Below, piece after piece: positions 54,416 through 54,665 of a stretch of DNA of 64,000 bases. The translations under genes were made by a program, and so were the position numbers. This DNA is from Ignavibacteriales bacterium (GTDB lineage: Bacteria > Bacteroidota > Ignavibacteria > UBA10030 > SZUA-254). The stretch covers positions 2,745 through 66,744 of the forward strand of contig JACRFD010000070.1 in the NCBI GenBank assembly GCA_016218025.1, read 5' to 3'. The notes under the pieces are model-generated. The model saw only the letters and a program-made list of their open reading frames with translations, was not told the origin of the DNA and searched no databases. Every line of letters begins with the position of its first letter. Position 1 is the first letter of the stretch.

Positions 54416-54665
54416 ATGATCGGTAAAACAATATTCCATTATAACATAGTAAAGAAATTGGGCGAAGGCGGACTTGCCCGCCGGAGCCAAATTCACATCA
54501 AAGGTTCATTCGATGGTTGGTAAGACTATCTCACATTATAAGATATTAGAAAAGCTCGGCGAAGGCGGACTTGCCCGCCGGAGCCAAATGCACATCAGAG
54601 GTTCATTCGATGGTTGGTAGCACTATTTCGCATTATAAAATTTTAGAAAAGCTCGGCGAAGGCGG
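54416..54665 (+). repeat. 97-bp tandem repeat (2.6 copies) comprising the kinase start codon and first 19 codons plus a 41-nt GC-rich spacer
   Basis: ATGs at 54416, 54513 and 54610 are exactly 97 nt apart. The units encode '[19 protein letters not shown]', '[19 protein letters not shown]' and '[19 protein letters not shown]'. The spacer ACTTGCCCGCCGGAGCCAAAT(T/G)CACATCA(A/G)AGGTTCATTCG is present twice. Confidence 0.85.

Follow-up and report, generated by a model that had tools for sequence, protein, structure and literature searches.

A candidate translational relay built from copies of a kinase N-terminus in leaders of an Ignavibacteria-like order

Short leader open reading frames (ORFs) that are translationally coupled to a following gene are already known. 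Upstream ORFs (uORFs) acting as monitoring substrates are represented by SecM-SecA, MifM-YidC2 and VemP-SecDF2, GC-rich palindromes by the Rickettsia palindromic elements (RPE) and REP/BIME, and programmed translational bypassing by T4 gene 60 and the mitochondrial byp elements. A synthetic 'bicistronic design' with a translationally coupled leader cistron was reportedly presented by Mutalik et al. in 2013. Synthetic coupling elements are treated in a review (PMC11602170).

The leader analyzed here precedes a Ser/Thr protein kinase gene in a 64,000-nt stretch of a metagenome-assembled genome (the whole stretch is called the window) and, judged by its sequence, is best filed as a variant of translationally coupled leader ORFs. 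As in the bicistronic design, a short upstream ORF carries the Shine-Dalgarno (SD) motif of the downstream ORF and stop and start overlap (ATGA or TAATG), so that ribosomes ending the leader would reach the main start and melt local structure. It differs in being natural, in starting with the gene's own first 19 codons, which are conserved at the amino-acid level, and in its conserved hairpin modules, stacked one to four times; in the 97-nt subtype, moreover, the stop is found 8 nt beyond the start codon and does not overlap it. Like SecM, MifM and VemP, the uORF peptide resembles proteins that the downstream system handles, and leader translation would control downstream translation; unlike in those systems, the downstream protein itself is mimicked and not its substrates. 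The N-terminal part of the peptide is conserved in its amino acids and the C-terminal tails are not, and neither an arrest sequence nor an SD-sequestering helix was detected in the leaders. With RPE and REP/BIME the leaders share palindromes that are tolerated in frame in translated sequence, are nested and have covarying stems, but these palindromes are not dispersed: in the window's genome they occur nowhere but in kinase leaders, where 26 of 30 copies of the type C spacer (described below) sampled elsewhere are located as well. A GGA Gly codon at the hairpin foot, with a GC-rich insert and then an SD-like GAGG behind it, recalls gene 60 and byp; here, however, the putative take-off codon is not succeeded by a stop, the reading frame continues through the insert as far as the next start, and bypassing would merely add a second N-terminus. 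Programmed bypass or frameshift fusion was accordingly rejected, as GGA is followed by CTT with no stop, a slippery site is lacking and the main frame is -1 relative to the uORF.

Neither the literature nor Rfam yielded a leader family whose peptide copies the N-terminus of the downstream protein under protein-like constraint, or one with in-frame, stackable structured RNA modules that spans dozens of genera. The leader family is apparently both widespread and undescribed. It would be a natural counterpart of the synthetic bicistronic design, and it may provide a layer of control over the large families of Ser/Thr kinases in Ignavibacteria-like bacteria. Public gene calls label such ORFs 'hypothetical protein' or fragmentary 'serine/threonine protein kinase', an annotation that recognition of these leaders would improve.

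Three ATG codons at 54416, 54513 and 54610 lie exactly 97 nt apart, as originally predicted, and each opens a variant of MxGxTIxHYxIxxKLGEGG, a copy of the kinase N-terminus according to both sequence and ORF listing (Table 1). The 19 codons encode strand beta-1, the residues that precede it and one half of the Gly loop. Copies 1 and 2, here called decoys, each form with the following spacer a 35-codon uORF, confirmed by the ORF listing, and at both junctions the stop (TAA, then TAG) lies 11 nt into the following copy. Both uORFs have their own ATG and lie on the same strand as the kinase, downstream of a promoter-like site situated about 105 nt upstream of the first decoy ATG; sigma-70-like sites are no more numerous than in shuffled sequence. 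Upstream of the uORF 1 start the sequence is AT-rich and without an SD motif. The kinase contains a Pkinase domain (residues 9-260) and a C-terminal TPR region.

Table 1. Features of the kinase leader in the window (positions count from the first letter of the window).
Feature	Position	Strand	Basis or remark
Sigma-70-like promoter candidate, TTGACA-17-TATATT, 11/12	54281-54309	+	Consensus match only
uORF 1, 35 codons + TAA	54416-54523	+	Sequence, ORF listing
Decoy copy 1 of kinase N-terminus, 19 residues	54416-54472	+	In uORF 1
Hairpin 1, GGC GAA GGCGG ACTTGC CCGCC GGA GCC	54461-54488	+	Consensus of 18 type A leaders
Spacer 1	54473-54512	+	In uORF 1
AAGG, counterpart of GAGG before copy 2	54501-54504	+	Sequence
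uORF 2, 35 codons + TAG	54513-54620	+	Sequence, ORF listing
Decoy copy 2, 19 residues	54513-54569	+	In uORF 2
Hairpin 2, identical to hairpin 1	54558-54585	+	32-nt exact repeat
Spacer 2	54570-54609	+	In uORF 2
GAGG, SD-like motif inside uORF 2	54598-54601	+	8 nt before kinase ATG
Ser/Thr protein kinase gene (Hanks-type), 858 aa	54610-57186	+	ORF listing, domain match

The GC-rich spacer, described beforehand as 41 nt long, is present after copies 1 and 2, and its length is 40 or 41 nt depending on the assignment of the boundary base; the two spacers show the two differences expected (38/40 identical, 95%). Copies 2 and 3 (50/57 identical, 88%) are distinguished by the K-to-S codon and the silent changes that had been listed, to which one further silent GGA/GGG change at the boundary has to be added. 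Copy 1 is indeed more diverged (43/57 vs copy 2 and 40/57 vs copy 3). Pairing of GGCGG-ACTTGC-CCGCC, likewise anticipated, falls within the RNAalifold consensus structure of 18 related leaders, and the 5' arm of hairpin 1 consists of the decoy's own Gly-Glu-Gly-Gly codons. For 54461-54665, TRF gave a period of 97 with 2.1 copies, 92% matches and a score of 354.

The genome that holds the window comprises 2.58 Mb. Its assembly contains four family kinases with this type of N-terminus, and the comparison of paralogues for which the original prediction had called revealed a decoy leader in three of them. In front of the second kinase (C58, 171635/171732) one decoy of 35 aa begins exactly 97 nt before ATGGTTGGTAG; its spacer has clearly diverged from that of the window, open frame and stop position are unchanged, and the decoy ATG shares an ATGA with the stop of the preceding gene. 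The third (C36, 13875/14009) has a decoy downstream of a GAF-PP2C phosphatase gene, followed by a longer spacer that brings the ATG-to-ATG distance to 134 nt. Searched against the whole genome with blastn-short, spacers A and B matched kinase leaders only, and the overlap of start and stop is conserved in other genera; both results run contrary to the alternative once considered, a common dispersed repeat inserted at random. The locus is a member of a large family, not a one-off. By exact protein look-up no independent assembly of the window locus was found.

A sequence model of the 57-nt kinase N-terminus (R1) matched 43 of the 44 genomes of the family, often as close pairs. A strict pattern, consisting of the GEGG codons, 35-135 nt and then a full kinase start, was present within the order in 35 of 277 genomes (27 of 110 genera), and its reversed control in none. 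When a sample of 401 genomes from the phylum was searched, two genomes matched, both within the order, and none did among the roughly 360 genomes outside it. Counted from close R1 pairs in four complete or near-complete genomes, at least one decoy precedes about 6/16, 12/17 and 5/16 family kinases. One kinase in G239 is preceded by four near-identical 137-nt units in tandem, and multi-unit relays were met in independent assemblies, including one 872-kb contig. A nearly identical 97-type spacer stands before different kinases in metagenome contigs and in an 'uncultured Chlorobiaceae' MAG. Two small-ORF matches from other lineages (P0039, P0042) were rejected as decoys, being kinase genes broken into serial small ORFs. 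At these loci (L096 and L095, respectively) the same N-terminus is followed by serial small ORFs with 4-nt overlaps, and their tails (LRRSQVPA) look like RFVALKFLP translated in a shifted frame; these split kinases are probably frameshifted genes or assembly errors.

Across 42 unique units the ATG-to-ATG distance varies from 80 to 215 nt. It is 1 mod 3 only in the four 97-nt units and 2 mod 3 in the other 38, which comprise 20 distinct lengths between 80 and 215 nt. In 32 of the 42 the stop of the decoy ORF overlaps the next start as ATGA, and in the 97-nt type the stop (TAA or TAG) is placed within ATGGTTGGTAR, 11 nt into the next copy. Ten further units, which the strict pattern did not find, provided an out-of-sample set, in which six end as ATGA and four stop 1-20 nt before the next ATG. 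Altogether the ORF is open up to the next start in all but one of 52 units. In the spacers of the first 42 units, stops number three in the uORF frame vs 26 and 38 in the alternative frames. Depending on the junction, the uORF crosses the type C element in one or the other of two frames, with flanking lengths that compensate. Being related by descent, the units allow no meaningful exact probabilities; selection on ribosome passage is indicated because many independent length changes all keep the ORF open to the next start. This conservation of open frame and junction has the signature of translational coupling, for which it argues on sequence grounds. The maintained relay of overlapping uORFs that had been proposed is thus supported by the open frame in 51/52 units and by ATGA in 32/42 and 6/10.

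We consider it probable, from these sequence comparisons, that the leader acts as a translational relay of termination and reinitiation, conserved in one Ignavibacteria-like order. Ribosomes would start at the outermost, AT-rich start, translate the short ORF, including its GC-rich hairpin spacer, and terminate at the next start codon or just beyond it, which in relatives mostly means at the ATGA overlap. Reinitiation at that start would be aided by the SD-like GAGG inside the uORF, and the cycle would repeat up to the kinase ORF, with two steps preceding the kinase in the window. Because of the second unit, ribosomes in the window would have to reinitiate once more, and less kinase would probably be made. 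By inference the uORFs are translated and kinase synthesis depends on them, each extra unit lowering or gating the output. A role of the hairpins in protection against polarity or decay, or in binding of a factor, is possible. Several observations speak against the relay. SD-like motifs precede 27 of 43 inner starts vs 30% of long ORFs genome-wide, and predicted accessibility (unpaired) is only slightly lower at inner than at outer starts (0.40 vs 0.47), so that independent initiation is possible; the window leader as a whole folds no better than its shuffles (z 0.16); the type A hairpin is almost without covariation; and some units break the rule, one being broken and several stopping up to 20 nt before the next start.

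The spacers are made of nested palindromes and fall into at least three types. Type A, found in the window, consists of the hairpin GGCGG-N6-CCGCC-G-N-AGC and about 25 variable nt that include an SD-like motif; it is conserved in sequence, with a single compensatory pair in 18 type A leaders. Type B is type A with the nested hairpin CCGAC..GCTCCA-GAAG-TTGGAGC..GTCGG. In type C a hairpin about 50 nt long, GTCCCRAA...TTYGAGGATC, precedes a second, small one (CCGCC/GGCGG) and GGGAGG. Compensatory changes affect 10 of the 19 pairs in the type C stem, in which a tandem G·A internal loop can be read; these 10 covarying pairs give good support to the hairpin as a new structured element. Against Rfam 15 the best score of the window leader was lysM-TM7 with 20 bits vs a threshold of 61.5 (E 0.88), and six related leaders and the type C element were without a match. 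In-frame palindromic inserts also lie within decoys, e.g., ILEK-PRHKDGGQV-GEGG, and the junction of decoy and spacer follows codon 9, 13, 17, 19, 20 or 26.

Several minor observations concern these elements. One type C element with its small tail hairpin (L083, G148:C347, 1501-1549) lies immediately before a tRNA gene, away from any kinase start; of the 30 copies sampled, it alone is clearly unconnected with a kinase. In L002 (G008:C439, about 1480-1600) four tandem 24-nt repeats, GGTGGACTTGTCCGCCATCTTTCT, each hold the perfect palindrome of the type A hairpin, about 800 nt from a kinase start and on the opposite strand. Small hairpins in L010 (G008:C501), L061, L064 and L017 have a common loop, RAAGW, closed by CA...TG, on stems that vary (CGCCA/TGGCG, GCTCCA/TGGAGC, CCGACA/TGTCGG), and these recur as in-frame modules in decoys; a conserved loop on varying stems suggests a hairpin motif that may be recognised. 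In the type A alignment (A4), column 30 (window 54484, 54581) is the single variable base in the conserved CCGCCGNAGC after the hairpin. In the uORF, where the frame reads Arg-Arg-Ser, this base ends an Arg codon, which fits either an unpaired internal-loop base or selection on the RRS peptide motif.

The relay alone leaves it unexplained that the decoys keep their amino-acid sequence, and this self-mimicry of the peptide is the most interesting part of the leader. Among 62 decoys, selected by requiring only the GEGG codons in the decoy, the N-terminus is intact in about 90%, and diversity by codon position is 0.19/0.12/0.59. Within spacer types pS is 0.68-0.80 and thus saturated, with pN at 0.07-0.11, and pN/pS reaches 0.10-0.14 within each type vs 0.12 for real N-termini; the median identity of a decoy with its own partner kinase is 71%. 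A decoy lineage with a shared 9-codon insert behaves alike over codons 2-14 (pS 0.91, pN 0.10). Nearest-neighbour analysis of the decoys was uninformative owing to saturation. In the 15-kb kinase array of G015, the decoys are 60-76% identical to every real copy there and therefore have no recent conversion donor nearby; recent gene conversion from neighbours was rejected on this ground. In the sample anchored on the type C element, the stretch just before the element can still be recognised as a decoy's C-terminal half in nearly all kinase-leader copies, and two copies look degenerate or broken, the contexts being read by eye. Such constraint would fit either direct selection on the peptide or a shuffling of paralogue N-termini frequent enough to keep the decoys 'fresh'. 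Mosaics were seen, so N-terminus modules do shuffle among paralogues, and the repeated capture from paralogous kinases that had been suggested at the outset is possible if recast as module shuffling.

A decoy peptide that is itself functional, as an N-terminal-mimic micropeptide or a nascent chain that tunes or reports the status of the kinase, is a doubtful explanation. It would be recognised in the same way as the kinase's own N-terminus, by the kinase/phosphatase pair, a targeting factor or a chaperone, and the C36 leader behind a GAF-PP2C phosphatase gene is in keeping with this. It is favoured by decoy residues as strictly kept as those of real N-termini at saturated synonymous sites, also in the lineage with the insert, by the low identities within the G015 array and by the nearly complete integrity of the decoy halves anchored on type C, two excepted. 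However, the shuffling of paralogue modules gives the same dN/dS picture, the peptide sequence of the tails after GEGG is not conserved, type C is read in two frames, no recognised arrest motif or partner accompanies the decoys, and 5 of 19 residues are changed in copy 1 of the window, the outermost decoy. We hold just as tentatively the combined reading that a directly selected nascent peptide, read by co-translational phosphorylation, binding or targeting, gates the ribosome relay. If true, a eukaryote-like kinase would have a monitoring substrate that mimics the kinase itself, and the stackable units would form a copy-number rheostat.

Scars of recombination or insertion at the conserved 57-nt kinase start, without regulatory role and with the frame kept since its loss would be polar, would explain the nested palindromes (type B as type A with an inner hairpin), the inserts inside decoys, the strongly covarying type C stem with one copy adjoining a tRNA gene, the near-identical 97-type spacers before different kinases, the tandem amplification to 4 units in G239 and the duplicated start with hairpin-rich insert at C80 (see below). 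This explanation is nevertheless unlikely: the elements are not dispersed in the window's genome, most sampled type C copies sit in kinase leaders, and the layout extends over 27 genera with nearly all decoys intact and no decay series. Its frame conservation still requires translational coupling, so that it differs from the relay only on adaptive value. Far less probable is a leader-peptide transcription attenuator, whose terminator and antiterminator hairpins would be set by the position of the ribosome on the uORF. In type B leaders (C36) GGAGCTTCGTCGG can pair, on reading the sequence, either upstream or downstream, and TTATCTTTC follows the downstream helix; but there is no terminator-like site in window 53500-54900, the type A hairpin has no U tract, runs of regulatory codons are absent, and an attenuator would not need the ATGA junction rule. 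Together with the small difference in accessibility and the fold z of 0.16, the missing terminator-like site leaves a simple model of SD masking or attenuation unsupported. That the tandem repeat is an assembly artefact of a metagenome-assembled genome could be suspected from its 91 contigs and 85% completeness, and is extremely improbable: the copies differ at least every 32 nt, the longest exact repeat within the region being 32 nt (54461/54558), so an assembler with k >32 had a unique path, multi-unit relays recur in independent assemblies, and a conserved frame and junction are not expected from an artefact.

Regarding the origin of the copies, the earlier statement that the pattern does not stem from fresh slippage applies to copy 1, an older decoy, and not to the third copy, which arose by a fairly recent 97-nt tandem duplication. 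The duplicated 97-nt period is the second unit of the window (uORF 2). Its duplication is recent given the identity of the spacers (95%) and of copies 2 and 3 (88%), and one decoy, the arrangement seen at C58, is the ancestral condition. It is plausible that a tandem duplication spanning the start yielded a copy of the N-terminus, a piece of 5' leader and the full gene, for which GGCGG, common to the Gly-loop codons and the hairpin foot, could have served as microhomology, and that nested palindromes then elaborated the spacer. Intergenic regions before the outermost decoys are short, AT-rich and without these hairpins. Decoys as remnants of deleted upstream kinases were not supported, since kinase C-termini (PEYIEMMKGK) are unlike the spacers.

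Two further loci of the window's genome were noticed in passing. On the minus strand of C80 (77551-77860) the start of a 637-aa ORF (MHKFIFKPFDEMTEKDYAMVGFKSGLEIHQQL...), which may be a GatE/GatB-type amidotransferase subunit, is duplicated 228 nt upstream. The duplicate, which shows 3 mismatches, includes some 12 nt of leader plus 77 nt of coding sequence, the copies are parted by a hairpin-rich insert of about 150 nt, and a gene that looks like a RelE/ParE-type toxin lies just upstream; it is the second duplicated start with a palindromic insert in this genome. On C25 (34200-34400) the palindrome CCTTCCCGAAACTTTTGRAGTTTCGGGAAGTTCC occurs twice just upstream of an ORF starting MPYRKDKFGIGECYHVFNRG, presumably akin to a REP-associated tyrosine transposase, which may be the mobilising enzyme of the palindromic family.
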